The translations under genes and the position numbers were made by a program. 64,000 nt of DNA, taken from the IMG/VR virus record IMGVR_UViG_3300031521_000001. The stretch is one strand, 5' to 3'. This stretch comes from a virus. A model generated the notes under the pieces. It ran no database searches, was not told the origin of the DNA, and was given only the letters and a program-made list of their open reading frames with translations. Each line of letters begins with the position of its first letter. Within the stretch, counting starts at the first letter, position 1. Positions 7,736-54,809 of the stretch are shown here, piece after piece.

Positions 7736-8605
7736 ATGCAAAGAGTATTAGTAACAGGAGGTTCTGGATTTGTAGGAACTAATCTTATTAAATATTTAAA
7801 TAAAAATTATAAAGGTATTGAAATATCATCATTAGACAATTACTTCACAGGTAAAGAAGAAAATCATGTAGATGATGTTACATATTACAATGGTAATACA
7901 TGGGATGCTCCTGAAATATTAAAAAATAAGAAATTTGATACAGTTTTTCATTTTGGAGAATACTCTAGAATTGTAAAATCATTTGATGATATTAAATATG
8001 TCGAAAAAACAATTTTATATGGCACACCAATAATAATGGAATTGTGTAGAGAATGGAATGCAAAATTAATATATTCTGCTTCATCTTCTAAATTTGGAAA
8101 TAATGGTGAAAATGAAAATTTAGCTCCTTATTCATGGATGAAAGCAAAGATTGTTGAACTTATAAAAAATTACAATAAATGGTATAATTTACAATATGAA
8201 ATTTGCTATTTTTTTAACGTGTATGGTGAAGGTCAAATAATGACAGGAGATTATGCTACTGTAATAGGCATATTTGAGCATCAATACTCAGAAGGTAACA
8301 AATGTACAGTTGTTGAGCCAGGTACTCAGAGCAGAGACTTTACCCACATTGAGGACATTGTTAGAGGTGTAGTATTATCATCTTTTACAAATATGAATCA
8401 TGAATGGTATTTACGTTCTGGAATAAATACTAGCATTATAGATGTTGCTAAAATGTTTGGAGAATTTGAATTTGTGTCTAAAAGAAGAGGAGAAAGATAT
8501 AATTCAGAAGAATTTGAAACTGATACAGAAAGAGAATTAAATTGGGTACCAGAACACAAATTAGATGATTGGATTAAATCAATAAAAAACAAAAAGAGAG
8601 ATTAA
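7736..8605 (+). CDS. NAD-dependent epimerase/dehydratase (extended short-chain dehydrogenase family; UDP-sugar epimerase or decarboxylase-like)
   Basis: N-terminal Rossmann fold VLVTGGSGFVGTNL; catalytic YxxxK (YSWMK). Confidence 0.85.
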   Translation: MQRVLVTGGSGFVGTNLIKYLNKNYKGIEISSLDNYFTGKEENHVDDVTYYNGNTWDAPEILKNKKFDTVFHFGEYSRIVKSFDDIKYVEKTILYGTPIIMELCREWNAKLIYSASSSKFGNNGENENLAPYSWMKAKIVELIKNYNKWYNLQYEICYFFNVYGEGQIMTGDYATVIGIFEHQYSEGNKCTVVEPGTQSRDFTHIEDIVRGVVLSSFTNMNHEWYLRSGINTSIIDVAKMFGEFEFVSKRRGERYNSEEFETDTERELNWVPEHKLDDWIKSIKNKKRD

Positions 8606-11862: not shown

Positions 11863-12173
11863 AATATATAAAAACATTTGAAAAATTAGATAGAAAAATA
11901 AAAAAAGGAGATTATGCTATAATCGATTTTAAAACAACTAATCCTGGAGTTACAGAATTTTTTCAAAATAATATTAGTAAAATTATCGAAGTAAGAGGAA
12001 TATGGATTAAATTTGGTTATAAATATGTACCAGAAGAAATCAAGGAATATTTTTATAAATCTAGAGTATATTATATATATCAAATAGAGTTAAACTTAGA
12101 AGATGTTTACTCTTATGCTATCTCAAAAGAAAAATTAGAATTAGAATTATCAACAAAAAAATTCAACATATGA
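11859..12173 (+). CDS. family A small protein (MKYIKTFE...GDYAI...KKFNI)
   Basis: array III. Confidence 0.75.
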   Translation: MKYIKTFEKLDRKIKKGDYAIIDFKTTNPGVTEFFQNNISKIIEVRGIWIKFGYKYVPEEIKEYFYKSRVYYIYQIELNLEDVYSYAISKEKLELELSTKKFNI

Positions 12174-12748
12174 AATATATAAAAACATTTGAATTATCAA
12201 CTTTTTATGATGAAAAAGATATATTTTGGTATATCCATAATATTAATTTACCTAAAATTAAAGAATTAGTATCTGAAATACCTAATATTAATCTTAATAT
12301 TAAAGATAGTACTGGTGAAACACCTTTGCTTCAGTCAGTTAGGTTTAGTTTATATAACGTGTTTAAATTTTTGATAGAATCAGGAGCAGATGTAAATTGT
12401 ACATGTACTAATGGAGTCACTCCATTGATGATAGCAGCAAGAAATAAAAAAGAAGAATTTGTTCAAGATTTAATAGATGCTCACGCAGATTTGAATATTA
12501 AAAATGATGACGGCGAAACTGCATTAATTATGATTTCTAGCTACACAGATAAAAAGGCTTTTAAAATAATTGAAAACTTAATTGAAAGTGGTGCAGATTG
12601 GAATATATCTGATAATTATAATAATACTTTTTTGATGCATTTACAACCTGCATATATGAAAAAAATAATAGAAAAATATCCAGATAAATATGAAGAATTT
12701 ATTAAAGAATATAATTTTAAAAATGATATAAAAAAATTCAATTTATGA
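12170..12748 (+). CDS. ankyrin-repeat protein in family A frame (MKYIKTFE...KKFNL)
   Basis: 3-4 ankyrin repeats (TGETPLLQSV..., NGVTPLMIAARNKKEEFVQDLIDAHADLN, DGETALIMIS...). Confidence 0.8.
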   Translation: MKYIKTFELSTFYDEKDIFWYIHNINLPKIKELVSEIPNINLNIKDSTGETPLLQSVRFSLYNVFKFLIESGADVNCTCTNGVTPLMIAARNKKEEFVQDLIDAHADLNIKNDDGETALIMISSYTDKKAFKIIENLIESGADWNISDNYNNTFLMHLQPAYMKKIIEKYPDKYEEFIKEYNFKNDIKKFNL

Positions 12749-13992: not shown

Positions 13993-14298
13993 ATGAAAGT
14001 AGAAAAATTTAATGAGCATAATTTTACAACATTTGATGATGATATTGTATATGCAGGTAAATCTAAATACCCAGTAGGCACCAAAATTAAATTTAAAGAT
14101 GATGGTGAGTATTTAACTGGTACTTTGACACATCCATTTGGTTATGGTGATGTTGGTGTATTCTTAGATGAAAAAGGTAAATATAAATATGATAGGGTAT
14201 CACTAAAAAACAATGAATATACAGTAATTGATGATGATGTTGATAAATTCATTAAAGATCACAATTTCAAAAAAGATATAAAAAAATTCAATTTATAA
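13993..14298 (+). CDS. family A-related small protein (atypical N-term MKVEKFNE; C-term IKKFNL)
   Basis: last gene of array III. Confidence 0.7.
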   Translation: MKVEKFNEHNFTTFDDDIVYAGKSKYPVGTKIKFKDDGEYLTGTLTHPFGYGDVGVFLDEKGKYKYDRVSLKNNEYTVIDDDVDKFIKDHNFKKDIKKFNL

Positions 14299-14344
14299 GT
14301 GAAATAGCTTATAACTTATGTTTATAAGTGAAATAGCTTATAAC
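14295..14344. repeat. 21-bp direct repeat ataagtgaaatagcttataac, 2 copies (14295-14315 and 14324-14344), overlapping the stop of the upstream gene
   Basis: exact duplication 29 bp apart. Confidence 0.8.
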
Positions 14345-14345
14345 G

Positions 14346-14385
14346 AAAAAATCCTATCTAATTTTTCAATTAGATAGGATTTTTT
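14346..14385. terminator. 18-bp-stem hairpin aaaaaatcctatctaatt-tttc-aattagataggatttttt
   Basis: perfect inverted repeat with A/T runs. Confidence 0.7.
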
Positions 14386-14682
14386 TTAATATTGCTTGAG
14401 AATACAGCATTATAGAGAAGAACTTTAGAAACTATTATTTTTTTCTCACTAACATTTGAATTAGTATTCTTCTAATACAATCTAAGAAATAATTAAACTT
14501 CTTTTGTTGTTAGATAGTTCGGTAAAATGATAAAAAATAATTAAATTCATTAAATTTTAATTAATATTTTACTTTTTTTTCTTCATTCATAGAGGATCTA
14601 ATGGATTTACTCTCCTGAAGCGTTAATTTGGGTGAACTCAACCCTATTTTAATATTTTTTTATTAAAAATAAATAAATGAAA
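14386..14682. ncRNA. about 300-nt ORF-free segment bracketed by two strong hairpin terminators; candidate small-RNA gene (strand unknown)
   Basis: delimited by hairpins at 14346-14385 and 14683-14719; contains GC-richer segments (ggatctaatggatttactctcctgaagcg, gggtgaactcaaccc). Confidence 0.3.
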
Positions 14683-14719
14683 AAAAACACTACTTAATAT
14701 TGAATTAAGTAGTGTTTTT
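14683..14719. terminator. hairpin aaaaacactacttaat-attg-aattaagtagtgttttt
   Basis: about 13-bp stem with A/T-run flanks. Confidence 0.6.
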
Positions 14720-16039
14720 ATTTGTAATAGGCTGAGAAATATACCTTATACAGAAGAATCTTAAAAAGTTATTATTGTTTCTACTTTCTTTCCACTAATA
14801 TTGGTTTCCCTAACATTAGTAATTCTCAATGACAGTCAATTAGATTAACTAATCCTTTTGTTGTTAATTACTCTCTCAGTACTTATTACCTATCTAGGTT
14901 GCCACCCAAACTCAATCTTGCTACAGATTTAAGGAATTTTTCTGAAAATCATGTCAAACTTGGGGTTCTTCACGGCTACGACGATTTTCATCTCATAACT
15001 AGTAGTCACCTTTCATCAACAACAGTCGAACACTTTTCCTTTATTTGTTTTATTTTAATTGTGCATTAAATTTGCAATTTAAAGTTTGTTTTGTGGATAA
15101 TGAAAGTAGTGGTTCGACAACCAGCGTCTCCATCTTTTGAACGGAAATATACTAAACTACTCTCTGAGATATCCCTATCTCCATATTTTAAGTCAACTAA
15201 GATACTCTCATAGCACTTGGTAATGCTAAGGTAACCTTAATAACAGCACCACCTGTACATTGTATTACAATCTAATATTACCTTTCGGTTTTAAGCTAAC
15301 TCTCATAATGGACAACGCAATTATACAACTGGAAATCGTATTTCTTGCAATAATCCTTCAGGTTATTCTTATTGATGTTCCCATCTCACTTAGACTACCC
15401 ACATAGCCTTTGCATTAAACCACTTTCTCTACAGTGTTACCCTCGATAATTAAGGTTTAATGATATCCTGATTGTCTGCTCAAACACTAAATAATGTATT
15501 AATAACAAATTAACTAACTATTAACTATTCATATTAATGAGTATGTGAAGAATCTTACCGAAGCAAAATCAATTACACACAAAAAAATGTGTCAAATTAA
15601 TAATTGTTGTATCTGTTGATTAATAAATAATTTAATGTCGCAAATATATAGAAACAACTACATATTCACTTTATCCTACTTTCGTAGTTTATTTAATGAC
15701 TACAGACAGCCAAATATTTTCAATTTTTACAAAGAACGCTTTTAATAAAAAACAAACATTTAGATTGTAGTAAAAATTTATACTATCACTTCTTAACTAA
15801 AAGAAGTTAGTTCTAATAAAAGGAATTAACCTTTTAAACTTGTAAATTAACCATTTTCATAGTTATATATACTAATCAATCTAAATGTGTTGTTTCTTGT
15901 TGTTTCAAGTACGTTTACTTGAAAAATGACACAAATCTATTTCAGTCCATTTTTTTCTTTTCAGAACTTTTTTCAGTGGAACAATAAACATTTGGTATGT
16001 TCATTATATTTACTGTTATAATATAAATCCTTAAATTTG
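14720..16039. other. unique ORF-free, GC-richer (pyrimidine-rich on the plus strand) noncoding segment of the 3.8-kb island
   Basis: no ORF of 60 aa or more on either strand; composition differs from coding flanks. Confidence 0.5.
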
Positions 16040-16607
16040 TATTACATTTGCAACATTTACTTCTGTAATATTAATCGTACACTTTTGCAAGCTTCAAGTT
16101 GGCTTTTGCCTTTGATTATTTTTATTACTTTTTCAATTTCATTAATATCTAAGTGTGTTTAGTTGCACTATCTCCTTTTGCAAGCTTCAAGGTGGTTTCT
16201 GTACCATTAGATTTTTCATTGCTTTTACTATCTAAGTGTGTTTAATTGCACTATCTCCTTTTGCAAGCTTCAAGGTGGTTTCTATACCATTAGATTTTCA
16301 GTTTCATTTACAATTTAGTTTATTTCTACATGTGTTCATTTATAGTTATACACCTATTGCAAGCTTCAAGGTGATTTCTGTATCAACATTTTTCATTGTA
16401 TTTGAAATATATAAGTGTGTTCATTTGCACTATCTCCTTTTGCAAGCTTCAAGGTGGTTTCTATACCATTATATTTCTCATTGTATAAGCAAGATAATTA
16501 ATATGTAAGTGTGTTCATTTGCACTATCTCCTTTTGCAAGCTTCAAGGTGGTATTTTATACCATTACATTTTTCATTGCTTCAATCTGAAATTTGATTTG
16601 TTTCATT
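16040..16607. repeat. tandem minisatellite RA, 83-95 bp units, about 6 copies (about 16040 degenerate, 16148, 16231, 16326 degenerate, 16411, 16504); core ctaagtgtgttcatttgcactatctccttttgcaagcttcaaggtggtttctataccattagattttt
   Basis: head-to-tail near-identical units read directly from the sequence. Confidence 0.85.
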
Positions 16608-16608
16608 A

Positions 16609-16693
16609 TTGTAGTTCAAAATTACAAAAAGTTTTTTGTTTTACCAAATATTTAATGTTAAAGTTTTGAACTTTTTCAAGTACTCTTACTTGA
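16609..16693. repeat. RB element copy 1 (about 85 bp, MITE-like): TIR agttcaaaa...ttttgaact, terminal hairpin tcaagtac-tct-tacttga
   Basis: repeated at least 6 times in the island. Confidence 0.8.
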
Positions 16694-16815
16694 ATGAGTA
16701 TTAAAAAACCAAGTCATTTATAAGTTCTGTTAGCTTCTCAGCTTAGAAAAATAAACTTTCATTTGTCATATTTATTCTTGTAACTTTACAAATCTGCGAA
16801 ATGTATTATTATCAA

Positions 16816-16885
16816 TCTAAGTGTGTTCATTTGCACTATCTCCTTTTGCAAGCTTCAAGGTGGTATTTTATACCATTAGATTATC
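16816..16885. repeat. RA unit, isolated copy 6
   Basis: near-identical to the 16504 unit. Confidence 0.8.
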
Positions 16886-16915
16886 TATTAAATCTGATAT
16901 ATGTTTTGCTTTTTT

Positions 16916-17003
16916 ATTGTAGTTCAAAATTACAAAAAGTTTTTTGTTTTACCAAATATTTAATGTTAAAGTTTGAACTATTTTTTCAAGTACTCCTACT
17001 TGT
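16916..17003. repeat. RB element copy 2
   Basis: same sequence, including the caagtactcctacttg hairpin. Confidence 0.8.
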
Positions 17004-17083
17004 TTTTGTTATGAATAATAATCAAGGAACTTACTTCTTCTGACAAGTCAGTGTTTCAGTGTTAAAATTAATATTCATAGTGA

Positions 17084-17166
17084 AGATAGATGGAGTTGAA
17101 CCCAGTGTCAGTAACACTTGCCTTCTGCACAATTCGAATCGTGCTGCACCCTGTGTGCTTATCTTC
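17084..17166. ncRNA. GC-rich structured element flanked by a 7-bp inverted repeat (gaagata...tatcttc), with internal stem gcac-aattcgaatc-gtgc
   Basis: local GC-rich island in an AT-rich noncoding region; contains a T-arm-like ggagttgaacc but no complete tRNA cloverleaf. Confidence 0.3.
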
Positions 17167-17500
17167 ATCATTTTTATAATTTAATCAATAGTCAGTCCTT
17201 GTAGAGAAATAATAGCAGTCAGTCACTGATCATCTGACATTAGGTTCACACATCATCAAAAATTAATTTGATAGGTAATTTCCACGGTGTAGTTACTATT
17301 TACATTTATAACAAGATAAGTTCTACAGTTCTCATATCTATTTCAATGGACTTTTCATCTTTGATAATTTTCATTATCATTAACTCACCACTATTAGCAT
17401 CAAATTCATCTGGTTCATATATATTTTGTTACAAACATATACACTCTGATTTCAGATATTGCTGATATTTCTTGTTTAAATCTGATTTTTTGATTTAAAT

Positions 17501-17592
17501 TATTGTAGTACAAATATACAAAAAGTTTTTTGTTTTACCAAATATTTTTTGATATTTTTTCTACATTTTTTACTCAAGTACGTTTACAAGAG
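17501..17592. repeat. RB element copy 3 (divergent)
   Basis: attgtagtacaaatatacaaaaagttttttgttttaccaaatatt...actcaagtacgtttacaagag. Confidence 0.65.
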
Positions 17593-17764
17593 TTTTAAAA
17601 AATCAAATCATTTTTCAGTTCTTTTTATCTTCACAGATTAGAAATAACATTTTTTCATTTGTTATATTTACTTCTGTAACATTAAATTTATGTATTTTCA
17701 GTTTCACTATAATCTTGTTCAAGATTAAGGGTGGTTTCCTTACTACTAAATTGTGATTACTTTA

Positions 17765-17833
17765 ATCTAAGTGTGTTCATTTGCACTATCATTCTCTTGC
17801 AAGCTTTGAGAGGTTTTTATACCATTAGATTTT
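17765..17833. repeat. RA unit copy 7 (divergent)
   Basis: ctaagtgtgttcatttgcactatcattctcttgcaagctttgagaggtttttataccattagatt. Confidence 0.7.
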
Positions 17834-17861
17834 TTTCAATCTGAAATTTGATTTGTTTTTA

Positions 17862-17930
17862 TTGTAGTTCAAAATTACAAAAAGTTTTTTGTTTTACCAA
17901 ATATTTAATGTTAAAGTTTTGAACTTTTTT
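17862..17930. repeat. RB element copy 4 (lacks the terminal hairpin)
   Basis: attgtagttcaaaattacaaaaagttttttgttttaccaaatatttaatgttaaagttttgaact. Confidence 0.8.
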
Positions 17931-17971
17931 TCAATTGAAATTTAATTTTTGTGATTATATTTCTTTTGATA

Positions 17972-18056
17972 TTGTAGTGCAAAATTACAAAAAGTTTTTT
18001 GTTTTACCAAATATTTAATGTTAAAGTTTTGAACTTTTTCAAGTACTCTTACTTGA
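17972..18056. repeat. RB element copy 5 (complete, with hairpin)
   Basis: near-identical to copy 1. Confidence 0.8.
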
Positions 18057-18071
18057 AGTTTTTTGTTTTTT

Positions 18072-18135
18072 ATTGTAGTACAAAATTAATAAAAGTTTTT
18101 GATACTACCAAATATTTAATGTTAAAGTTTCAGTT
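18072..18135. repeat. RB element copy 6 (partial), abutting the stop of 18136..18474
   Basis: attgtagtacaaaattaataaaagtttttgatactaccaaatatttaatgttaaagttt. Confidence 0.65.
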
Positions 18136-18474
18136 TTAATATACGCATTCATATCCATCTGAATTCTCAAGTGTTTCAATAATTTCCAATAAAAAATCAT
18201 TAAAGTTTTTACTTGTATAATCTTTTGAAAAGAAATAATGATATTTTTCTAAAATCTCATCTCCTCTATTATAAAACAATTTTAATTTTGTTGCAGTATC
18301 TAATGCATCATCTTTTGACATTTCATGAGCCATATCTGCATAGTGCTCATTTTGACAATATTCATTATCTTGAAATTTCGCACCAATTTCTCTACATAAA
18401 GTTTCAATTAGATGTTCTCTATTTATGCTTGTTATAAACTTAATACCACTTTTTGTAATAATAGTTTTACTCAT
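18136..18474 (-). CDS. hypothetical protein
   Basis: 112-aa ORF; the overlapping plus ORF 18213..18437 is rejected. Confidence 0.7.
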   Translation of the reverse strand: MSKTIITKSGIKFITSINREHLIETLCREIGAKFQDNEYCQNEHYADMAHEMSKDDALDTATKLKLFYNRGDEILEKYHYFFSKDYTSKNFNDFLLEIIETLENSDGYECVY

Positions 18475-18496
18475 ATATTTATGTTTTTAAACTGAA

Positions 18497-18545
18497 TTAC
18501 AAAATTACAAAAAGATTTTCATACTACCAAACATTCACAAGTTAA
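18497..18545. repeat. RB element fragment (copy 7) in an intergenic spacer
   Basis: ctgaattacaaaattacaaaaagattttcatactaccaaacatt. Confidence 0.5.
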
Positions 18546-22741: not shown

Positions 22742-23149
22742 ATGAAATATTTAAAAAAATATGAAATGTTAAACAAATTAGACACATCAGATAATCCTAT
22801 ATTTATAGAATTTATGATTAATTTCATAACATCTTTAGATTATGACTTAACCACAAATTACAATAAAAAATACTCTAGAAATGAGATATTTTTTTATAAC
22901 AAAGATATAAATTCTGAGGGTTTAAAATTTTGTATTGAAATAACAAATGATGAATTAATTTTTAAAAAATACCATAATAATTTTAAGATTATTGAAGAAT
23001 ATTTAGAAACTATCAATGGATTAAATTTAATAAATATTGATCATCACATATACAACTTTAAGATATCAGGAAATACTCTAGATATCGAAGAACAGATAAC
23101 AAAAAAGAATTTTGATATGTTTAGAGAAGCAAATAAATTTAATTTATGA
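22742..23149 (+). CDS. family A protein (MKYLKKYE...ANKFNL)
   Basis: array IV. Confidence 0.75.
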   Translation: MKYLKKYEMLNKLDTSDNPIFIEFMINFITSLDYDLTTNYNKKYSRNEIFFYNKDINSEGLKFCIEITNDELIFKKYHNNFKIIEEYLETINGLNLINIDHHIYNFKISGNTLDIEEQITKKNFDMFREANKFNL

Positions 23150-23487
23150 AATATTTAAAAAAGTTTGAATCTAAAGAAGTAGATTTATTTAATGCTATTG
23201 TAAATGACAACACAAAAAGAGTTGAATATTTAATTAGACTTAATGCTGATATAAACATTCAAGATGCTGAAGGTAGAACTCCATTATTTTATGCAGCAAA
23301 TCATGATTTTATGAGTATTGTTAATATACTTATTGAAGCAGGAGCGGATTGGAATATTATTAACAACAAAGGATATGATTTTACATATTTATTAAGTGAT
23401 AAACAATTTGATTATATTATGAAAAAATATCCTGATGAATATAAAGAATATTTAATGAAAAAAACAGCAAACAAATTTAACTTATGA
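23146..23487 (+). CDS. ankyrin-repeat protein in family A frame
   Basis: NADINIQDAEGRTPLFYAANHDFMSIVNILIEAGADWN. Confidence 0.8.
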   Translation: MKYLKKFESKEVDLFNAIVNDNTKRVEYLIRLNADINIQDAEGRTPLFYAANHDFMSIVNILIEAGADWNIINNKGYDFTYLLSDKQFDYIMKKYPDEYKEYLMKKTANKFNL

Positions 23488-23915
23488 ACCATTTAAAAAT
23501 ATATGATAATTATAAAGATAAAATGAATTCAAAGAACAAATTCAATAATATGATAAATGAGTATATACCAGGATATTACATGATATATAAATCTAATACT
23601 TATCATTGGAAGCAACATAGATACAATGAATATATAGTATTATGTAGAATTATAAATCCAGAAGTTTTTGATGAAGTGGATCTAAGATTAAACATAGATA
23701 TTCTATCTTATTTTTGTGAATTAGAACAACATGAATTAAGGGAAGATGAAAAAATAAAGACTGGAAAACAAATAATAAATCCAAATCATTCAACGTTTGA
23801 AAGATTATTTTTGTCATCGTCATTAAAAACATCTCAAGATAAATTTGAAGAATTGAAAGAAACTACATATTATCAATGGGAATTAAATAAAGTCACAGAT
23901 AAATTTAACTTATGA
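23484..23915 (+). CDS. family A-related protein (MNHLKIYDN...TDKFNL)
   Basis: array IV. Confidence 0.7.
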   Translation: MNHLKIYDNYKDKMNSKNKFNNMINEYIPGYYMIYKSNTYHWKQHRYNEYIVLCRIINPEVFDEVDLRLNIDILSYFCELEQHELREDEKIKTGKQIINPNHSTFERLFLSSSLKTSQDKFEELKETTYYQWELNKVTDKFNL

Positions 23916-24298
23916 AAACATTCAATCAATACAATGAATCTATAAAAAATAAACATTTTCCTATATATTTTAGAAGATATTATGAATCAGGTAGATATAA
24001 AATATCAGATATATATTACGACATTGAACAAGCAAATAAATATAGTATTGAATATGTTCTATTTAATAATACCACTAAAGGAGATGAGTTCTTTTACTTA
24101 TATTTATTTCCATGTAATGAAAATGAATCTAAAATTATTAGTTCTGAGTTAATAGGTATGTTTAATCTATCAAGTATATTTAATGAAGACTTAACAACAG
24201 AAGAAAATATAGAATTAATAAAAACATCAAAAAATGCGAATATTATAAATTTAGAAGATGTAAATTTAATAATAAATTCAAATAAATTTAATATATGA
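23912..24298 (+). CDS. family A variant, N-term MKTFNQYNE (T4 CTS-like), C-term SNKFNI
   Basis: array IV. Confidence 0.75.
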   Translation: MKTFNQYNESIKNKHFPIYFRRYYESGRYKISDIYYDIEQANKYSIEYVLFNNTTKGDEFFYLYLFPCNENESKIISSELIGMFNLSSIFNEDLTTEENIELIKTSKNANIINLEDVNLIINSNKFNI

Positions 24299-24726
24299 AA
24301 ACATTTATACAGTTCAATGAAACTGAAAATTATGGAGAACCAATGTACAGTAATACAAATAGAATAACTCTTAACCTTTATTCTTATAATGACGAAGAAA
24401 ATGATTTTCCTCTTTTAGAACGAGATATCAAAAAATTAGAAGAAAATAATATTTATTATATTATAATTAGTACAACAGACAATTATATTAACTCTACACA
24501 ATTTCAAACAATGTTTAAAATTTATGCATTACCAAAAAATAAAGAACAGAGAGATATAACTTATTATAATATGAATTTTTCTTATAATACTAAAATTAAC
24601 ATAGAATACAATGGTGAAAATTTAGATGAAGTTTTAGATGCAATTAAAAAAAGAAATAAAAATTTTTCAATCATAAATAAAGAAGACTTATATGTTATTA
24701 TAAATTCAAATAAATTTAATATATGA
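24295..24726 (+). CDS. family A variant, N-term MKTFIQFNE (CTS-like), C-term SNKFNI
   Basis: paralog of 23912..24298. Confidence 0.75.
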   Translation: MKTFIQFNETENYGEPMYSNTNRITLNLYSYNDEENDFPLLERDIKKLEENNIYYIIISTTDNYINSTQFQTMFKIYALPKNKEQRDITYYNMNFSYNTKINIEYNGENLDEVLDAIKKRNKNFSIINKEDLYVIINSNKFNI

Positions 24727-25082
24727 AAACATATCAACAATTTAATGAAATGAGCAATGTTGGATGTACTATATTTTTCAAAGTATATTTTAAATTTGAA
24801 AATGTGTATAAACAAATTGAGATATTAGATGAAAATAGAATAGATTATGATATATCTTATCATAATAAATTCATTAAAATAGATGCTTATGCTTATTCTA
24901 TAAGTGAGTATAATTTTCTTATATCAATTGAATTCAAAATAAATAAAAAATCACAAGAACTAATAAATCCAAATATGTCACTTGATAAAATTAGAAGTAT
25001 TGTAAAATCAGACAAAGGTTGGACGCCAACAAGTAAAGAAGAATTACCATACATTAATGATATAAATAAATTCAACTTATGA
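24723..25082 (+). CDS. family A variant, N-term MKTYQQFNE (closest to T4 MKTYQEFIAE), C-term INKFNL
   Basis: array IV. Confidence 0.75.
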   Translation: MKTYQQFNEMSNVGCTIFFKVYFKFENVYKQIEILDENRIDYDISYHNKFIKIDAYAYSISEYNFLISIEFKINKKSQELINPNMSLDKIRSIVKSDKGWTPTSKEELPYINDINKFNL

Positions 25083-25585
25083 AATATATAAAAAGATTTG
25101 AAAGTATAATAACAGAATTGAATTACTCAAGTAAAGGATTAACTTCTTTACCTGAGTTGCCTGATACATTAAAGAATTTGGGATGTCATCATAATAAATT
25201 AAGATATCTACCAGAATTACCAACTACATTAGAAGAATTGTTTTGTGGCGATAATGAGTTAAAAAAATTGCCAACTTTACCAAACACAATAACAAATTTA
25301 ATGATTCATCATAATGATTTGACAGAATTGCCAGATCTACCAGATTCATTGATAAATTTTTCATGTGGGCATAATAATTTAACTGAAATACCAAAATTAC
25401 CAAATAATTTAGTATATTTTTTATGTGATAATAATAATTTATCTGAATTACCAGAAATGCCAGAAACTGTAACTCAATTTAGTTGTAAGTATAATAATTT
25501 ACCATATGAAGATTTGAATGGATATTGGGATTGGTTTTATGATAGAAATCCAGAAAGAAAACAAGCAAAAAAATTCAACTTATGA
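25079..25585 (+). CDS. leucine-rich-repeat protein in family A frame (MKYIKRFE...AKKFNL)
   Basis: about 7 tandem LRRs of 20-22 aa (LPELPDTLKNLGCHHNKLRYLPELPTTLEELFCGDNELKKLPTLPNTITNL...). Confidence 0.8.
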   Translation: MKYIKRFESIITELNYSSKGLTSLPELPDTLKNLGCHHNKLRYLPELPTTLEELFCGDNELKKLPTLPNTITNLMIHHNDLTELPDLPDSLINFSCGHNNLTEIPKLPNNLVYFLCDNNNLSELPEMPETVTQFSCKYNNLPYEDLNGYWDWFYDRNPERKQAKKFNL

Positions 25586-26097
25586 GATATTTAAAAAAAT
25601 TTGAAAAATATAATGCATCTTTAGATTTAAATTATATTTTAGAAGATGATGTATATAGTGATTCAGATGCAATAAAATTATTAAAAAAAGTGAAATATGC
25701 TATTGACAATGATTGTGTTATTGATAATATTAATATACATTGGATGGAAAGAACTCCTTTAATTACATGCGCTGTTTTAGACTGTCATATAAAAACCCAG
25801 TCTAAATATAGAAATATATTTGAGCAAATAGCAAAAGAACTAATTAATTCAGGAGCTAATATAAATCATATAGATAAAGATAACAGAAGTGCTTTAATAT
25901 GGGCTACAGATAGAGGACATTTTGATGTAATGGAACTATTAATTGAAAATGGCGCAGATTGGAATATTATGGATGTATTCCATCATGAATTTCATGAATA
26001 TTTGAGTGATGAACATTTTGAAAAAATTATTCATAAATATCCAGAACAATATGAATTGTATAACATGAAAAACAACACGAACAAATTCAATTTATGA
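25582..26097 (+). CDS. ankyrin-repeat protein in family A frame
   Basis: ELINSGANINHIDKDNRSALIWATDRGHFDVMELLIENGADWN. Confidence 0.8.
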   Translation: MRYLKKFEKYNASLDLNYILEDDVYSDSDAIKLLKKVKYAIDNDCVIDNINIHWMERTPLITCAVLDCHIKTQSKYRNIFEQIAKELINSGANINHIDKDNRSALIWATDRGHFDVMELLIENGADWNIMDVFHHEFHEYLSDEHFEKIIHKYPEQYELYNMKNNTNKFNL

Positions 26098-26585
26098 AAC
26101 ATATAAAAACATATACTCAGAAAGAATTGGATGATAATTTGTTGAAATATTCAGCAAAACAGGCATCTTTGCAAAAAGTAAGAGAATTGATAACAGATGG
26201 AGCTAACGTTAATTGTTTTGATCGTATCAGATATAACACGCCATTAATTAACGCATCACAACAACTAAATTATAGTACAATTAAATTGTTAATAGAAAAT
26301 GGTGCTGATATAAATTTAGTAAATAAAAACAATAAAAATTGTATATTTTATATTGTTAATCAAAACACATATACTTATACTAAATATAAAAATAAAATTA
26401 ATAATATAATTGATTTATTAATTTCATCTGGAATAAATTTAAACAATAAAAATAAAAGTGATGTTGATATTTTTGATAATATTCAAGAATCAAATCCTTT
26501 TATTCTTCAATATATAATAGATAATTATCCAGAAGAATACAAAGAATATTTAATGAAAAAAACTGCAAACAAATTTAACTTATGA
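26094..26585 (+). CDS. ankyrin-repeat protein in family A frame
   Basis: LITDGANVNCFD...NTPLINASQQLNYSTIKLLIENGADINLVNKNN. Confidence 0.8.
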   Translation: MKHIKTYTQKELDDNLLKYSAKQASLQKVRELITDGANVNCFDRIRYNTPLINASQQLNYSTIKLLIENGADINLVNKNNKNCIFYIVNQNTYTYTKYKNKINNIIDLLISSGINLNNKNKSDVDIFDNIQESNPFILQYIIDNYPEEYKEYLMKKTANKFNL

Positions 26586-26902
26586 AATATATTAAAGCAT
26601 ATGAAACAGTTGAAGTCTGGAACGATAATAAAAGGATAAAAACATATGATTCATCAGAATACGAATTAAGTGATTATGTGATTTTGAATAAGCTTTATTT
26701 TCCAGATATAAGTGATAATTACACATATCTTATAGGTAAAATAATAGACATTTCAGAAAATAATAATATGTTTTATTGGGTTATTAAATTACCAGATAAA
26801 AAAGTAGTATGGACTGGAGATTATGAAATACATAAAACTATAACAAAAGAAGAATATGAAACGCTAGAAATAAAAAATTCATCAGATAAATATAATATAT
26901 AA
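26582..26902 (+). CDS. family A-related small protein (MKYIKAYE...SDKYNI)
   Basis: array IV. Confidence 0.7.
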   Translation: MKYIKAYETVEVWNDNKRIKTYDSSEYELSDYVILNKLYFPDISDNYTYLIGKIIDISENNNMFYWVIKLPDKKVVWTGDYEIHKTITKEEYETLEIKNSSDKYNI

Positions 26903-26906
26903 GAAT

Positions 26907-27239
26907 ATGATAAGTAAATATAATGACTTCATTTTAGAAAATAAATATGAAGATGAACGTGAAGATGTCACAGGTAAAGTTAACAGAAGTAAAAAGTTAT
27001 CGAAAGAAATGAAGGAAAAAATATTACCTTTGATTATTCCTGGTAATACAAAATACAAAAATGGTAGAATTTTTGATTTACATATACCTAAAATCGAAGG
27101 TAAATCATTTAAATTAGTAAGCTTAGGTGCAGATAAAAATGGATTTTTTGTATTTACTCATAGAGCAAGATGTAAATCTAAACCAAATATTGAAGATATT
27201 CCAAATAAAGATATTGAATTTATTGAAACAACAGGATAA
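26907..27239 (+). CDS. hypothetical basic protein
   Basis: ORF, no family termini. Confidence 0.6.
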   Translation: MISKYNDFILENKYEDEREDVTGKVNRSKKLSKEMKEKILPLIIPGNTKYKNGRIFDLHIPKIEGKSFKLVSLGADKNGFFVFTHRARCKSKPNIEDIPNKDIEFIETTG

Positions 27240-30666: not shown

Positions 30667-31605
30667 TTAGAAAAAATTGGAAGCGTCAACATATTTGAAT
30701 CCACATCTTTTAGCGAATGTTTTATCACTTGTCAAATCTCCAACCATTGTACATTGTGATGAGTCAAGTTTATATTTTTCAATAAAATCTACACCTAATC
30801 CTACACCTGGTTTTCTACAATAACAAATTATTGGAGGTACTGAATGTCCACAATATTTATAATCAATATTAACTCCTAACATTTCATTTGTTTTTTCAAA
30901 ACAAGCTATTGCAGTTTCATGAGTTAATAAGCCTTTTGCTATACCGCTTTGATTTGAAACCCCTAGTAGTATATAACCTTGTTTCTGTAATTCTAAAAGT
31001 TTTTCTGTTCTACCAGGAATAATTTCTATATCATTCACATCAGTAGGGAAATGTCCTCCACTTTTAGTTACTCTTAAAGTACCGTCATAATCAAATAAAA
31101 TAGCTTTATTTGTATATTCTGATGGTTTACGTTTAAAATCAATTTTTTCTATATCATCAATTCCTTCTGATAGTTCTGGTGCTTCAAAATGTTTATTAAT
31201 TTTATAAAGTGCTGCAACAGGAAACATATGTGGATCATTAACTTTAGAATAATCACTTAAATTTGTAAACAACCTACCTTGAGTTTTTATCATTCTGGTA
31301 ACAGCATTGAACATACAATCTTCAATTTTTGTTGTGAAATAAAGACACAATACATAGTAGCCATATTTTTTTGCTAATGCAATAGCATCAGCCCTAGATA
31401 ACTTAGTAGAATATGTACCATCTAAGATAATATCTACTCCATCTATCATCAAGTTTTCAAGTTTTTTGTTGAGTGAACTTAATGTACCACCTTCAATATC
31501 TCTTGAAAGTAATGTACACTTATAATCAACCCATTTTTCAACAATACTTGATTTTCCTGCTGCTGGTAATCCACAAGTTATAACTAATTTTTTATCTTTT
31601 ATCAT
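30667..31605 (-). CDS. pnkp: polynucleotide 5'-kinase / 3'-phosphatase (T4 Pnkp-like)
   Basis: N-terminal P-loop ITCGLPAAGKSS; C-terminal HAD phosphatase motifs ILFDYDGTL (DxDGT), LLGVSNQSG, VGDLTSD. Confidence 0.85.
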   Translation of the reverse strand: MIKDKKLVITCGLPAAGKSSIVEKWVDYKCTLLSRDIEGGTLSSLNKKLENLMIDGVDIILDGTYSTKLSRADAIALAKKYGYYVLCLYFTTKIEDCMFNAVTRMIKTQGRLFTNLSDYSKVNDPHMFPVAALYKINKHFEAPELSEGIDDIEKIDFKRKPSEYTNKAILFDYDGTLRVTKSGGHFPTDVNDIEIIPGRTEKLLELQKQGYILLGVSNQSGIAKGLLTHETAIACFEKTNEMLGVNIDYKYCGHSVPPIICYCRKPGVGLGVDFIEKYKLDSSQCTMVGDLTSDKTFAKRCGFKYVDASNFF

Positions 31606-36835: not shown

Positions 36836-37159
36836 ATGAAATATATAAAGAAATTTGAAAATACTGAAGATAAACCAAAAGTTGGTGATTATGTATTGAT
36901 ATCAATTGATAATGATGAAGAAAATGATTTTTACTCTAATAATCCAGGACAAATTATTAAATTTTTTACTCTACAAAAATATAGGTTTACAGTTATGATA
37001 TCATATGGTAAAAACATTCCTGATAACATGAAAAATATATTATTACTTAATAAAAGATGTGGTTATTATAAAATTTTTGACTATGAAGATATCTTCATAT
37101 TTTCTAAAAATAAAGAAGATTTAAAACTAAAAATAGCATCAAATAAATTTAACTTATGA
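36836..37159 (+). CDS. family A small protein (MKYIKKFE...GDYVL...ASNKFNL)
   Basis: array V. Confidence 0.8.
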   Translation: MKYIKKFENTEDKPKVGDYVLISIDNDEENDFYSNNPGQIIKFFTLQKYRFTVMISYGKNIPDNMKNILLLNKRCGYYKIFDYEDIFIFSKNKEDLKLKIASNKFNL

Positions 37160-37473
37160 AATATATAAAATCATTTGAAAAAATAAATAATACAATTCAT
37201 TATAAAATTCCAGCATATCCGTTAGAAGTATATTTTATTGCAATAACTAAAATTGGTATGACACAAGATGAAATATCTCATTGGATTAATAATAAATACG
37301 CTCAATATTGGAATAACTCACATTTTAAATTTATATATTTAAATAACACATACAATGATTATACTAAAAAATATCAATGGAGTTGGACAAATAACATAAA
37401 TAAAGCAAATGAGACTGTAATAGAAATAACTGTTGAAGATTATGAAATTGATGCAAACAAATTTAACATATGA
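37156..37473 (+). CDS. family A frame with divergent core (MKYIKSFE...DANKFNI)
   Basis: array V. Confidence 0.75.
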   Translation: MKYIKSFEKINNTIHYKIPAYPLEVYFIAITKIGMTQDEISHWINNKYAQYWNNSHFKFIYLNNTYNDYTKKYQWSWTNNINKANETVIEITVEDYEIDANKFNI

Positions 37474-37793
37474 AATACATTAAGAAATTTGAAATGATTG
37501 AAGATAGCCCAAAAGTTGGAGATTATGTCTTAATGAATATTAGTTATGATAAAAATTCAGATTTTTATCTTAATTATCCAGGTAAAATAATTAAATTTTT
37601 TACAATAGGAAAATATCGTCAAGGTGTAAATATATCATATGGAGATAATATTCCTGATAATATGACAGAAATATTAGGGTATACAAAAAAACATGGATAT
37701 TATAAAAATTTTCAATATAAAGAGATATATGCATTTTCAAAAAATAAAGAAGATTTAAAAATTAAAATAAGCGCAAATAAATTCAATATATGA
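37470..37793 (+). CDS. family A small protein
   Basis: paralog of 36836 (about 60% identity). Confidence 0.8.
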   Translation: MKYIKKFEMIEDSPKVGDYVLMNISYDKNSDFYLNYPGKIIKFFTIGKYRQGVNISYGDNIPDNMTEILGYTKKHGYYKNFQYKEIYAFSKNKEDLKIKISANKFNI

Positions 37794-38158
37794 AATACTT
37801 GAAAAAATTTGAAGATAATATAAATGAGCCTGAAGTTGGAGATTATGTATCTATAATAGGTAAAAAATTTATTAATCATTTAAGAAGATACTATGATGAT
37901 AAAGATATTGTTAATTTGAAAAAATATCTTCTTAATTTTCCTGGAAAAATTCATAGTACCTTTAATGATAAAAGAATAGGTGTGACATATGGTTTTGATG
38001 TTCCAGAAGATGTAAAAAAATTTTTACAATATGATAAACCTTATGGAGGTTACAATAAAATATTTAATTATGAAGATATAAATGCATTTGGAAAAACAAT
38101 AGAAGAATTAAAATATAAAATAGAACTTAAAAATAACATTAACAAATTTAATATATGA
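37790..38158 (+). CDS. family A small protein
   Basis: array V. Confidence 0.8.
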   Translation: MKYLKKFEDNINEPEVGDYVSIIGKKFINHLRRYYDDKDIVNLKKYLLNFPGKIHSTFNDKRIGVTYGFDVPEDVKKFLQYDKPYGGYNKIFNYEDINAFGKTIEELKYKIELKNNINKFNI

Positions 38159-38466
38159 AATACATAAAATCATTCAAAAATAAAAATTTAGAATATGAGG
38201 TAGGAGATTGTGTTAAAATAAAAATAATTCCTGATTATGTAAGTCATATAGAAAGAATTGAAGATAATTTATTTGTAAAAATAATAGAAATGAATTTTTT
38301 GACGAATCATAATAATAGTGATATTGATAATATATTTATTGTGTTTGAAACATTAATCACTAAACAAAAAATATCTGGTAATATATATTTCATTTCTAAA
38401 AAAATGACTGAATCAGAAATAGATTATTGTAAGATTAAATCAGAAACAAATAAATTCAACTTATGA
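38155..38466 (+). CDS. family A small protein (GDCVKI variant)
   Basis: array V. Confidence 0.75.
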   Translation: MKYIKSFKNKNLEYEVGDCVKIKIIPDYVSHIERIEDNLFVKIIEMNFLTNHNNSDIDNIFIVFETLITKQKISGNIYFISKKMTESEIDYCKIKSETNKFNL

Positions 38467-40630: not shown

Positions 40631-42091
40631 ATGAATAATAGAAACTTCATATTACATATAAAAGAAGATAAATACAAAAAATTATTAATTGATTATATTT
40701 TTAAATATCGTCAATTCGAAAACTTATATCTTATAATATTAAAAGAGAATAAGGATGATTTTAATTTTTTATCTAATTATAAAGTAATGAGAGCTATTCT
40801 TGCGGAAACTACTGGAGGTAAAGATAAAAATGAAGTTGATTTTATTAGATATAAATATAAAGAAAATGATAAAATGAATGAATTAATTATTTTATCAAAA
40901 AGTCTTAAAATACATAATATTTCAGATTTGATTAAAAGAGTAAAATCAAATTATAAATCTTTTTTCACTAAAATAAGAAATAAAGTTAAAGCCAACGTTC
41001 CATGTACAAAAAAGTTATCACTATTGACTAAATATTCCATTCTAGTTGATAAAATTGCATTTTCAATAAAGAAAAAGGATAAAATTGGAATCAACTTGAG
41101 TAATAAAATGTTTTATATTGATTTTAAGCATAAAATATTACCAGATAATATACAAAGTCTTAAAGTCGTTTACTCAAATAAAGAAGTTTATTTACATTTT
41201 AATTACTTGACTGAAGATATATTAAACACAAATAATTCATTAATAAAAGAAGCAGGAATAGATGTAGGTATTAATAATTTATTAGCTATATTTATTGATG
41301 ATAAAACATCTAAATCAATAATTGTTGACGGAAATATTTTTAAAACTTATAATTCAAAATTCAACAGGTTCTTGTCTAAACTTAATGAATCAATTTCTAA
41401 AGAAGTCATAGAATTTAAACTCAGTAATACTGGTACTAAATATGCAGTTAAGTGGACTAAAAGAGGAATAGAATTACGTAAATATAAGACATTTATTTAT
41501 GAAAAAAGAAATCGTTATTTTTATGATCAATTTCATAAAGTTAGTAAACGTGTGGTTGAATTATTGAAATTAAATTCTGTAAACAATCTAACAATTTCAT
41601 ACAATCTAGCTAGATTAAAATATAATGGTGATTGTAAATTAAATAAAAAAGTAAAACAAAATTTCATACAAATTCCTTTCATAAAACTACTAAATTACAT
41701 TCAATATAAAAGTAATGAAGTTGGAATTCAAGTAGATATAATTGATGAATCTTACACATCAAAGTGCTCATGTATTAGTGATAATGTGAATGATCCGTTA
41801 GATAAAGAACTAAATGGTGTTCGTTCTAAAAGAGATTTATTTACTGATAAACTAATAAATAAAACAATGAATGCTGATTTGAACGGTGCTGTCAATCATA
41901 TAAAAAAATCAAACAAAAATAATAATTTTTCTTGGTTGGAAAATTATATGTTTAAACTGTGTAATCCAGTTAAAATTAAATGCGACTACGATTTCTTTAA
42001 ATATTTAAAGAATAGTGTGCTCTGGCAAGGAATTTCATCAAAAGAAGTTCAAACGTCACTTCATGTACAAAATTGTACAAGTTTAAGTTGA
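40631..42091 (+). mobile_element. tnpB: IS200/IS605-family (IS1341-like) TnpB RNA-guided nuclease homolog; no tnpA
   Basis: RuvC-I GIDVGINNL, RuvC-II RVVELL, hallmark ESYTSKCSC, RuvC-III NADLNGAVNHI; second CxxC of the zinc finger is missing. Confidence 0.85.
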
Positions 42092-54489: not shown

Positions 54490-54578
54490 GAAGAATGACT
54501 GGATTCGAACCAGTAATAATTTATAATTTTTTACAAATGCTTTTTTGGCTACTAGTTTACCGATTAACTTACATTCTT
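54490..54578 (-). tRNA. tRNA-like gene, 89 nt: perfect 7-bp acceptor stem, D-arm AGTT-AATCGGTAA-AACT, T-arm ACTGG-TTCGAAT-CCAGT. The anticodon region is about 15-20 nt too long (intron or long variable arm); anticodon unresolved
   Basis: reverse complement of 54490-54578 folds into acceptor, D and T arms with canonical GG and T-Psi-C-like motifs. Confidence 0.55.
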
Positions 54579-54709: not shown

Positions 54710-54809
54710 TAGTTAAGGCGGGACTCGAACCCGCATGAGAAATTAATCTCTGAGATACCTCATTAATAGGATTTTAATCCTAAACGTCTAACCATTTCGT
54801 CACCTAACT
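54710..54809 (-). tRNA. tRNA-like gene, 100 nt: acceptor AGTTAGG/CTTAACT (one G-U pair), U8, D-loop AAATGGTTAGA, T-arm GCGGG-TTCGAGT-CCCGC. About 26 extra nt in the anticodon/variable region (stem-loops aggat-taaaa-atcct and atgag-N21-ctcat), probably an intron
   Basis: strong acceptor and T-arm pairing read from the reverse complement. Confidence 0.5.

Follow-up and report, generated by a model that had tools for sequence, protein, structure and literature searches.

A gene-poor island of a phage genome holds a GOLLD RNA gene preceded by predicted tandem promoters and putative small structured RNAs

Why would a viral genome that is densely filled with small genes leave almost 4 kb without a conserved one? 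The question is raised by the IMG/VR virus record IMGVR_UViG_3300031521_000001, of which we analyzed a stretch of 64,000 nucleotides (nt), hereafter called the window. The window has a guanine plus cytosine (GC) content of ~23%, and a gene-poor island of 3.8 kb (14299-18135) lies in it between the ends of two convergent genes, 13993-14298 (+) and 18136-18474 (-). The original prediction, made from the letters of the sequence, had also seen an island between convergent genes and had offered three accounts of it: several noncoding RNAs clustered together, a cis-acting site for replication or packaging, or a decayed landing pad for mobile elements. Our results bear out the first of these. The island is very probably a locus for the large phage RNA GOLLD, with promoter-driven small structured RNAs upstream of the GOLLD gene and a recombination scar downstream of it. 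All identifiable elements of the island read on the minus strand, a common orientation that had not been recognized before.

GOLLD RNA was reportedly described by Weinberg et al. in 2009. An Rfam covariance scan of the window placed a member of this family (RF02032) at 14729-15164 on the minus strand, with 243.3 bits against a gathering threshold of 150 (E = 6.6e-68). The match runs over all 416 positions of the model (1-416) and retains the pseudoknot (UGUUGUUGA pairs with UUAACAACA), with few non-standard pairs flagged. As a single Rfam match to a known family, the identification is in itself routine, and the covariance search that had been proposed for 14386-16000 returns it at once. The companion search of 17010-17500 yielded no family at E values up to 5-10, only chance matches of the small nucleolar RNA type. 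GOLLD RNAs are longer than 800 nt and are encoded in phages and prophages, often near transfer RNAs (tRNAs) (PMC12286853). Cryo-electron microscopy revealed that GOLLD forms an RNA-only nanocage of 14 subunits (Kretsch et al. 2025; PMC12286853); the cage is larger than the ribosome, and its function and cargo are not known (PMC12286853). Based on family membership, the RNA of the window is expected to form such a 14-subunit RNA-only nanocage.

A search based on the repeats of the island, which are described below, led to eight IMG/VR contigs of 113-256 kb, and a scan of Joint Genome Institute (JGI) metagenomes added a contig of 346,561 bp. These relatives form two lineages, A (e.g. L004 and L123) and B (L009 and L122). 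Comparison with them, one of the checks suggested at the outset, found the whole island conserved and syntenic, with its parts in the same order and 80-86% identity to the window. The flanking genes are 77-87% identical to those of A and B; the island is conserved at least as well without containing a conserved open reading frame (ORF), and its insertions and deletions relative to A and B are not multiples of 3. Searches for wider relatives of the ~70-nt repeat element described below, with an exact 18-mer and a degenerate pattern in IMG/VR, gave the same contigs, plus single chance matches of the degenerate pattern, while a 23-base pattern in the JGI metagenomes re-found lineages A and B only. 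The lineage of the window itself was not among the contigs retrieved, and no close relative was present in the phage reference collection. Matches to PHROG families in the window, together with relatives on IMG/VR contigs of 113-346 kb, provide a phage context for GOLLD. The genome is that of an AT-rich huge phage whose relatives reach at least 346 kb; its host is probably a member of the Bacteroidota.

Since the RF02032 model covers only the conserved 3′ half of GOLLD, the 5′ half has to be sought upstream on the minus strand. Conservation in lineages A and B and homology to the huge phage LR745206 place the 5′ domain at 15165-15770 (-), with the 5′ end estimated at 15740-15770. Within it, 15165-15480 is 95% identical to lineage A and 93% to lineage B, and 15480-15610 is a variable insert that is deleted in lineage A. 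Positions 15343-15467 match LR745206 inside its 287-bit GOLLD gene. The block 15610-15745 aligns to the start of that gene and contains a GNRA hairpin with compensatory changes (CTAC-GAAA-GTAG versus CCTC-GAAA-GAGG). At the orthologous position of the relatives, GOLLD scores 275-279 bits, and a hidden Markov model (HMM) built from the GOLLD RNA of the window finds 101 other GOLLD loci. The GOLLD gene of the window is ~1.0 kb long and runs on the minus strand from ~15740-15770 to 14729, ending at the terminator 14719-14683. This terminator has a stem of 16 bp with T8 behind it on the minus strand; being symmetrical, it would work both ways. Upstream of the gene, a leader region (15771-16024, -) holds several hairpins and the palindrome TTCAAGTAAACGTACTTGAA (15904-15923); it is ~92% conserved in lineage B and partly replaced in lineage A. 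It also holds a degenerate promoter-like box, TAAATTTT at 15773-15780 and then ACTACAAT, which we read as a promoter only tentatively.

The RNA of the window resembles other members of the GOLLD family in its full-length 3′-domain match with pseudoknot, its length of ~1 kb, its phage context, its separate and more variable ~600-nt 5′ domain with a GNRA hairpin, the variable A-rich linker between the two domains and, in part, its tRNA-type neighborhood. It also differs from them. Compared with its closest relatives, the gene is recombinant over its last ~300 nt, and a duplicate of the old 3′ end persists downstream. Further, no canonical tRNA adjoins the gene; the place is taken by a ~70-nt repeat and a degenerate tRNA-like element, and the true tRNAs lie 40 kb from GOLLD. 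The window contains two tRNA genes, 54490-54578 and 54710-54809 (both minus strand; 89 and 100 nt), which have unusually long inserts and score 41 bits each in Rfam. ARAGORN calls one of the two, as tRNA-Phe with anticodon AAA.

Could the island instead be a decayed or frameshifted coding region? The earlier claim that it lacks any ORF of 60 amino acids (aa) or more does not hold literally, since translation table 11 gives three plus-strand ORFs of 65-90 aa: 16236-16508 (90 aa, GTG start), 16801-17043 (80 aa, ATG) and 17268-17465 (65 aa, TTG). A minus-strand stretch at ~17310-17445 also translates to a protein-like tail. What stands is that the island is ORF-poor. All three ORFs overlie repeats on the strand opposite the promoters, none of them is kept in the two related lineages checked (A and B), and under table 11 no ORF longer than 56 aa occurs in 14299-16235. 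The largest island ORFs of lineages A and B are 40-62 aa long, with the exception of a 91-aa TTG-start ORF in L009 (1046-1321) that is likewise on the opposite strand, over repeats and unconserved. We also considered a decayed gene at ~17310-17445 (-) and rejected it; lineages A and B carry a hairpin insertion of 20-22 nt there, which breaks the protein-like stretch, and no frame is conserved. The surrounding 17010-17500 (-) is a non-repeated noncoding stretch; lineages A and B conserve it at ~80-90% but differ by indels of 20-22 nt and share no ORF in it. With ~1 kb of the island accounted for by a high-scoring structured RNA, a coding origin is extremely improbable.

The second half of the island consists of two repeat families, as the original prediction had pointed out; 4-7 matches were found where 0.00-0.02 were expected by chance. 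Both families are confined to the island and have no copies elsewhere in the window. The first is a module of ~90 nt, present in six copies that are all aimed at GOLLD. On the minus strand its core reads ATATTTGGTAAAACAAAAAACTTTTTGTAATTTTGAACTACAAT, i.e. TTTG, a 20-nt spacer and TAATTTTG. The consensus of the primary sigma factor in Bacteroidota, as defined by studies of Bacteroides and Flavobacterium, is TTTG at -33 and TAnnTTTG at -7. All seven repeat cores, the six of the island and one at 18500-18531, fit both boxes exactly with the 20-nt spacer. Three tandem modules occupy 17859-18130 (-), with cores at 17870-17901, 17980-18011 and 18081-18112 and a palindrome at 18038-18057. Promoter module 4 (17500-17592, -) has its core at 17511-17542, the -7 box TATATTTG and a degenerate upstream palindrome at 17573-17592. 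It is followed toward GOLLD by the 17010-17500 stretch and then by module 5 (16914-17004, -; core 16925-16956, upstream palindrome 16985-17004) and module 6 (16606-16694, -; core 16617-16648), which is preceded by the palindrome TTCAAGTAAGAGTACTTGAA at 16675-16694. Each module has an AT-rich palindrome, TTCAAGTA-N4-TACTTGAA, upstream of its core, and a small conserved hairpin, AAAUC...GAUUU, just past the predicted start site. The number of modules varies, lineage A having ten module matches.

The seventh core, which is diverged and lies outside the island (18500-18531, -), starts ~57 nt and ends ~25 nt upstream of the ATG of the gene 18136-18474. Its position before an ordinary gene supports a promoter function of the repeat core. 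The gene in question, which borders the island and encodes 112 aa, is missing from lineages A and B, where additional promoter modules occupy the place. Across the window, TTTG-N18-22-TAnnTTTG occurs 21 times against 6.1 expected, a number reached by 0 of 100 shuffles. The repeat core, always on the minus strand, accounts for seven of these matches, and others lie correctly oriented ahead of genes at 5257, 29013, 33604, 45124 and 61227. A Shine-Dalgarno-like motif was found within 20 nt upstream of none of 86 ORFs of at least 100 aa, compared with a background of 4.7%; this indicates Shine-Dalgarno-independent initiation and fits the Bacteroidota. Taken together, the exact boxes, the genome-wide enrichment, the placement upstream of genes and the lack of Shine-Dalgarno usage are as in Bacteroidota, and we predict that the core of the first family is a Bacteroidota-type promoter. 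Unlike the characterized promoters of that group, these are known from sequence, and a phage sigma factor or polymerase of similar specificity may serve them.

Tandem promoters are not peculiar to this phage. We fetched 114 IMG/VR loci that share a 16-nt motif of the GOLLD 5′ domain, and 101 of them proved to be GOLLD. In the 87 loci with enough upstream sequence, the promoter motif in sense orientation is enriched 14-fold in the 900 nt upstream (1.57 versus 0.114 per kb), and 36 of the 87 (among L126-L239) carry two to five copies within that distance. Three tandem promoter modules precede GOLLD in both LR745206 (634 kb) and IMG/VR 3300027996_002186 (L178, 483 kb), and in LR745206 promoter-tRNA units lie directly upstream of GOLLD. 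These two loci belong to the same GOLLD subfamily as that of the window. They share its 5′-domain motifs, its tandem sense promoters (two to five) directly upstream and its tRNA or tRNA-like genes between promoters and GOLLD. They differ in that they span ~1.5-2 kb, whereas the locus of the window is expanded to 3.8 kb, and in that their GOLLD genes are accompanied by true tRNAs or flanked on both sides by a ~95-nt class-II-like tRNA-like element. This GOLLD subfamily generally has promoters in tandem, a new finding in that we did not see such promoters upstream of GOLLD described in the literature searched.

The ~95-nt element, GGTCGGTTCGTCTAATGG...GTTCGATTCCTCTACCGAC, lies immediately downstream of GOLLD in several huge-phage loci and on both sides of it in two phages. 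It was located at 5279-5381 and 6474-6576 of L119 (LR745206) and at 8214-8320 and 9252-9338 of L178, and also in L176, L161, L146 and L219. Neither ARAGORN nor Rfam calls it a tRNA, and it is absent from the window.

The second repeat family is an element of ~70 nt whose consensus on the minus strand is AUCUAAUGGUAUAGAAACCACCUUGAAGCUUGCAAAAGGAGAUAGUGCAAAUGAACACACUUAGAU. A covariance model built for it (R1) detects eight full copies and one degenerate copy in the window, all of them in the island and in one orientation. Starting from the far end, two copies lie at 17763-17833 and 17684-17754 (85.9 and 63.3 bits), a single copy at 16813-16884 (94.4 bits) and five tandem copies at 16145-16215, 16228-16298, 16322-16394, 16407-16477 and 16501-16572 (59.6-98.9 bits). 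The degenerate copy at 16025-16119 (21.7 bits, E = 0.061) keeps the stem and loop ACTT-GAAGCTTGCAA-AAGT. Copy 17763-17833 shows compensatory stem changes, and copy 17684-17754 is strongly diverged and still forms a hairpin. The first copy after each promoter begins 30-38 nt past the predicted start site, the single copy ~34 nt past that of promoter 5. We assign the element to the minus strand because the promoters point that way, because of this 30-38-nt distance and because its AT skew of -0.18 to -0.24 matches the sense strands of the genome. In this orientation it reads in the same direction as GOLLD.

For 17 copies from the three lineages, RNAalifold predicted a four-way junction without guidance. 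It consists of a closing helix P1 of 6 bp, P2 of 3-4 bp, P3 of 4 bp with an 11-nt loop, and P4 of 3 bp. In the alignment 94.1% of the pair cells are paired, compared with 28-55% when the partners are slid by 1-3 columns. Changes on both sides of a pair affect 5 pairs and 11 cells, and the observed values were reached by 0 of 500 shuffles. In P1 a C-G pair is replaced by G-C, A-U or U-A. Stem ATCTAA/TTAGAT changes to ATGTAA/TTACAT or ATATAA/TTATAT. In P3, CCUU/AAGG becomes UCUC/GAGA, ACUC/GAGU or ACUU/AAGU, and one very diverged copy has rebuilt the helix as UAAUCUUG/CAAGAUUA. The 11-nt loop of P3, GAAGCUUGCAA, is near invariant and contains two overlapping 6-nt palindromes, AAGCUU and UUGCAA. 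We found no Rfam family match for the element in 14000-18500 at E values up to 5, and no R1 copy in 100 other GOLLD loci (977 kb). As a clade-specific, covarying array in the position of tRNAs, the element is a new part of the locus, with a putative function.

An array of palindrome-bearing repeats could also act as DNA. According to this explanation, 16000-18135 would hold iterons or a centromere-like site for replication, partition or packaging, the palindromes (AAGCTT/TTGCAA, TTCAAGTA-N4-TACTTGAA and ACAAAAA-C-TTTTTGT) would be bound by proteins and the fold of the RNA would have no significance. Numerous short palindromes and direct repeats, a spacing of 83-96 bp, an AT-rich gene-free stretch and a repeat copy number that differs between lineages are what such a site might show, and the strand of the element cannot be read from its wobble pairs. 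Stems that covary around a fixed loop, however, are a signature of base pairing and not of sequence-specific recognition by a protein. In addition, the first family fits the promoter consensus exactly and occurs upstream of an ordinary gene, and many unrelated phages have tandem promoters laid out in this way ahead of GOLLD. The island is less AT-rich than its surroundings (GC 0.25-0.29 versus ~0.21-0.23 in the flanks) and its plus strand is rich in pyrimidines, both as stated by the original prediction for the first 1.7 kb, and also in T, with GC skew down to -0.20 and AT skew to -0.24. The skew and origin check that it proposed gave no origin-like switch; the peaks of cumulative GC skew track gene orientation. 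A replication or packaging cis-element is left without support, and we regard a DNA-level role of the arrays as decidedly unlikely.

The reading of the arrays as promoters and structured RNAs raises the question of their relation to tRNAs, which occur on the same strand within 2.5 kb upstream in 44 of 82 other GOLLD loci. The small RNAs of the island sit where true tRNAs lie in about half of the other GOLLD loci examined. Like tRNA genes and phage tRNA islands, the two kinds of element in the island are ~70-87 nt long, have cloverleaf-like four- or five-way junctions and are arranged in tandem under their own promoters beside GOLLD. Unlike tRNAs, both fail the tRNA covariance model and the default ARAGORN search. 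For the ~70-nt element a tRNA identity found no support; 14000-18500 has no match to the tRNA model at E values up to 5, the island has no default ARAGORN call, and the element combines a loop of 11 nt with linkers of 0, 0, 5 and 2 nt and lacks a T-loop. Only at very relaxed thresholds (70-80%) does ARAGORN read some copies as cloverleaves, and these are on the opposite strand.

The other kind is a degenerate tRNA-like element at 17080-17166 (-), found by relaxed ARAGORN in the noncoding stretch downstream of promoter 4 and conserved in lineages A and B. From 17166 to 17080 it folds as a tRNA-like five-way junction with a closing stem of 7-8 bp, a long extra arm, a T-loop-like TTCAACT, and an 8-nt "anticodon" loop that contains the palindrome UUCGAA; its T stem is weak and its D loop very small. 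ARAGORN calls it at the 80% threshold only, as an 87-nt class-II-like tRNA, the default call being absent, and 17040-17200 has no Rfam tRNA match at E values up to 10. Relative to lineage A, it has U-G to C-G and A-U to G-U changes that keep the pairing, in the minus-strand RNA only.

These observations bear on the view that both elements are decaying, non-functional relics of a tRNA array and that only GOLLD and one or two promoters matter. Several facts speak for it: tRNAs are common upstream of GOLLD, 17080-17166 has the shape of a tRNA and yet fails tRNA models, relaxed ARAGORN finds the opposite-strand cloverleaves just mentioned, and copies 16025-16119, 16322-16394 and 17684-17754 are clearly degenerate. 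Most copies, however, keep their four helices by compensatory changes, and the 11-nt loop is near invariant across paralogues and across three lineages that differ by ~15-20% elsewhere. The tRNA model detects no similarity in the ~70-nt element, the linkers of this element are unlike those of a tRNA in either orientation, and the changes in the tRNA-like element between lineages preserve structure. Based on these findings, we consider it unlikely that the elements are mere relics.

Other ideas about the ~70-nt element were examined and not borne out. A CRISPR array has identical repeats of ~23-50 nt and unique spacers of similar length, whereas these repeats are ~70 nt long with AT-rich, partly conserved spacers of 12-26 nt. 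The mini-ORFs suggested by AAGGAG-N8-ATG within the repeat fail in several copies, where the ATG is ATT or ACT, and the 86 genes of the window show no Shine-Dalgarno-like motif. Homology to the tRNA-like element of LR745206 and L178, with which it shares TCTAATGG...CTTAG, is not detected by covariance model or HMM. Finally, a 7-nt complement of the loop in GOLLD (UUGCAAG, ~15340-15346) is conserved in A and B; with an estimated chance expectation of ~0.05-0.2, it is not evidence of pairing between loop and GOLLD.

Downstream of GOLLD, the island has a different history. The two strong hairpins reported by the original prediction are present, 14683-14719 with 16 pairs and 14346-14385 with 18 pairs, both having a run of U behind them when read on the minus strand. 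The segment between them had been taken for a stand-alone small-RNA gene of ~300 nt. Our results explain it otherwise. The 14346-14385 hairpin, a bidirectional intrinsic terminator with an 18-bp stem, is ~100% identical in lineages A and B, where GOLLD runs directly into its counterpart; it is their GOLLD terminator, and the 300-nt unit is missing there. In the window, 14394-14520 (-) is a leftover of the old GOLLD 3′ end (model positions ~290-415). Rfam reports a partial match at 14394-14495 (30.8 bits, E = 1.7e-5) with several broken pairs, and in a three-way alignment the last 57 nt of the leftover match, without a difference, the functional 3′ end that GOLLD has in A and B. The statement that the first 1.7 kb of the island are unique is nearly right, the exception being this diverged partial duplicate, 14394-14495 versus 14729-14860. 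Beyond the old terminator, two tandem 24-nt direct repeats (TTTATAAGTGAAATAGCTTATAAC; 14292-14344), 100% identical and each able to form a 7-bp hairpin, overlap the stop codon of the gene 13993-14298 and are conserved in A and B.

GOLLD itself has also diverged at its present 3′ end in the window. The core of the gene is 92-95% identical to A and B, compared with 77-87% for the flanking genes. Over the last ~300 nt, however, identity drops from 92-95% to 79% and then to 48%, while A and B stay 96-98% identical to each other. The diverged end still fits the family model through compensatory changes. No donor was found among 104 sampled loci.

Between the new terminator and the leftover lies 14560-14683 (-), a fragment with similarity to Lak-B phages that resembles the right end, or omega-RNA region, of an IS200/IS605 insertion sequence (IS). 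Seven Lak-B megaphage records contain a stretch with 82% identity to its positions 14611-14678. In Lak-B1 this stretch starts ~20 nt past the stop codon of an ORF with OrfB_IS605 and Cas12f1-like TNB domains. The ORF reads through TAG codons, as is expected for Lak phages. Because the Lak-B1 match lies directly 3′ of a TnpB ORF, the matching stretch represents the IS605 right-end or guide-RNA region. Like the right end of an IS200/IS605 element with a TnpB omega RNA, ~75 nt (14605-14680) align, including the hairpin GGGTTGAG-TT(C/T)ACCC. Unlike complete elements, only the terminal part is present; no tnpB or tnpA adjoins it, and the homology is limited to the ~75 nt that follow tnpB in Lak-B1. 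The fragment is absent from lineages A and B and has no second copy in the window. The window does encode a TnpB-like protein of 486 aa with OrfB_IS605 and Cas12f1-like TNB domains (40631-42091, +), and the sequence downstream of this gene is unrelated. For the idea of a mobile-element landing pad, the fragment provides limited support, as it amounts to only ~120 nt.

On the minus strand, the order is therefore GOLLD 3′ end, new terminator (14719-14683), ~120-nt IS-like part, AT-rich spacer, old partial GOLLD 3′ end and old terminator. The ~330 nt of 14386-14719 are a lineage-specific recombination scar, not a separate gene. In the simplest reading, the scar arose by recombination with a more distant GOLLD-bearing genome that carried the IS fragment along and left the old 3′ end behind. 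This chimeric GOLLD 3′ end with its IS-associated scar is a new part of the locus. A small-RNA gene at 14386-14683 could draw on the two strong bounding hairpins and on the fold of 14340-14730, which, hairpins included, is better than that of shuffled sequences (z = -6.8). The segment also holds a GOLLD-like 3′ subdomain and a fragment like a TnpB guide-RNA scaffold, either of which could be RNA. Much of the z-score, however, comes from the two terminator hairpins, no promoter motif occurs inside 14386-14683, and both halves are explained as leftovers of a unit that lineages A and B lack. We consider such a gene very improbable.

Based on these observations, we propose that the six stacked promoters in the 2.3 kb upstream of GOLLD would fire on the minus strand toward this gene. 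They would drive short structured RNAs, probably read through into GOLLD and stop at 14719-14683, and the ~490-nt transcript from promoter 4 would carry the degenerate tRNA-like element. No terminator lies between the units, and a multi-unit, heavily transcribed precursor is therefore likely. This precursor may be processed into the small RNAs and GOLLD, as in tRNA operons, and the GOLLD RNA would then form its cage. By its layout, the locus seems made for noncoding transcription of the minus strand at a very high level.

Several points weigh against this account. Promoters, start sites, read-through and processing are all deduced from sequence. No U tract accompanies the AT-rich palindrome that precedes each module, which leaves the ends of the units undefined. 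GOLLD has no convincing promoter of its own immediately upstream; the box at 15773-15780 is degenerate and falls out of register in the multiple alignment. The wobble pairs of the ~70-nt element leave its strand undecided, with 6 G-U versus 8 A-C cells, the majority of them in the two copies that have diverged most. Since the collections searched contain only three lineages, the covariation comes largely from paralogous copies that are not independent. Tracing of the host through a nucleotide-sugar epimerase gave one match, of 45% identity, to a gammaproteobacterial metagenome-assembled genome and is uninformative.

Some features elsewhere in the window also deserve mention. Back-to-back runs of ORFs of ~100-170 aa at 4-2002, 22742-27239 and 36836-38466 look like tandem paralogue arrays; in at least the first of them, each ORF is preceded by a near-identical stretch of 20 nt, e.g. 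AAATAAATTTAACTT. Weak PHROG matches to a tRNA nucleotidyltransferase and to a polynucleotide kinase/RNA ligase, for 6826-7578 (+) and 30667-31605 (-), suggest an RNA-repair theme. An ankyrin-repeat protein is encoded just upstream of the island, at 12170-12748 (+).

GOLLD is among the largest noncoding RNAs of bacteria and phages. Stacks of promoters together with tRNA-sized RNAs in a large GOLLD subfamily, probably of Bacteroidota phages, point to very high co-expression. In one clade the tRNAs have been swapped for an array of structurally constrained ~70-nt RNAs. We can speculate, tentatively, that the ~70-nt element is a new family of phage small RNAs tied to GOLLD that replaces tRNAs in this clade. 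If so, its near-invariant loop, in which AAGCUU overlaps UUGCAA, would pair with the loop of another copy or with GOLLD, and the ~70-nt RNA would be a candidate for a cargo of the GOLLD nanocage, for a partner in its assembly or for a decoy of tRNA size. If a functional link between the small RNA and GOLLD exists, the element is a concrete candidate for a partner, and the locus would give a genetic handle on the function of GOLLD.

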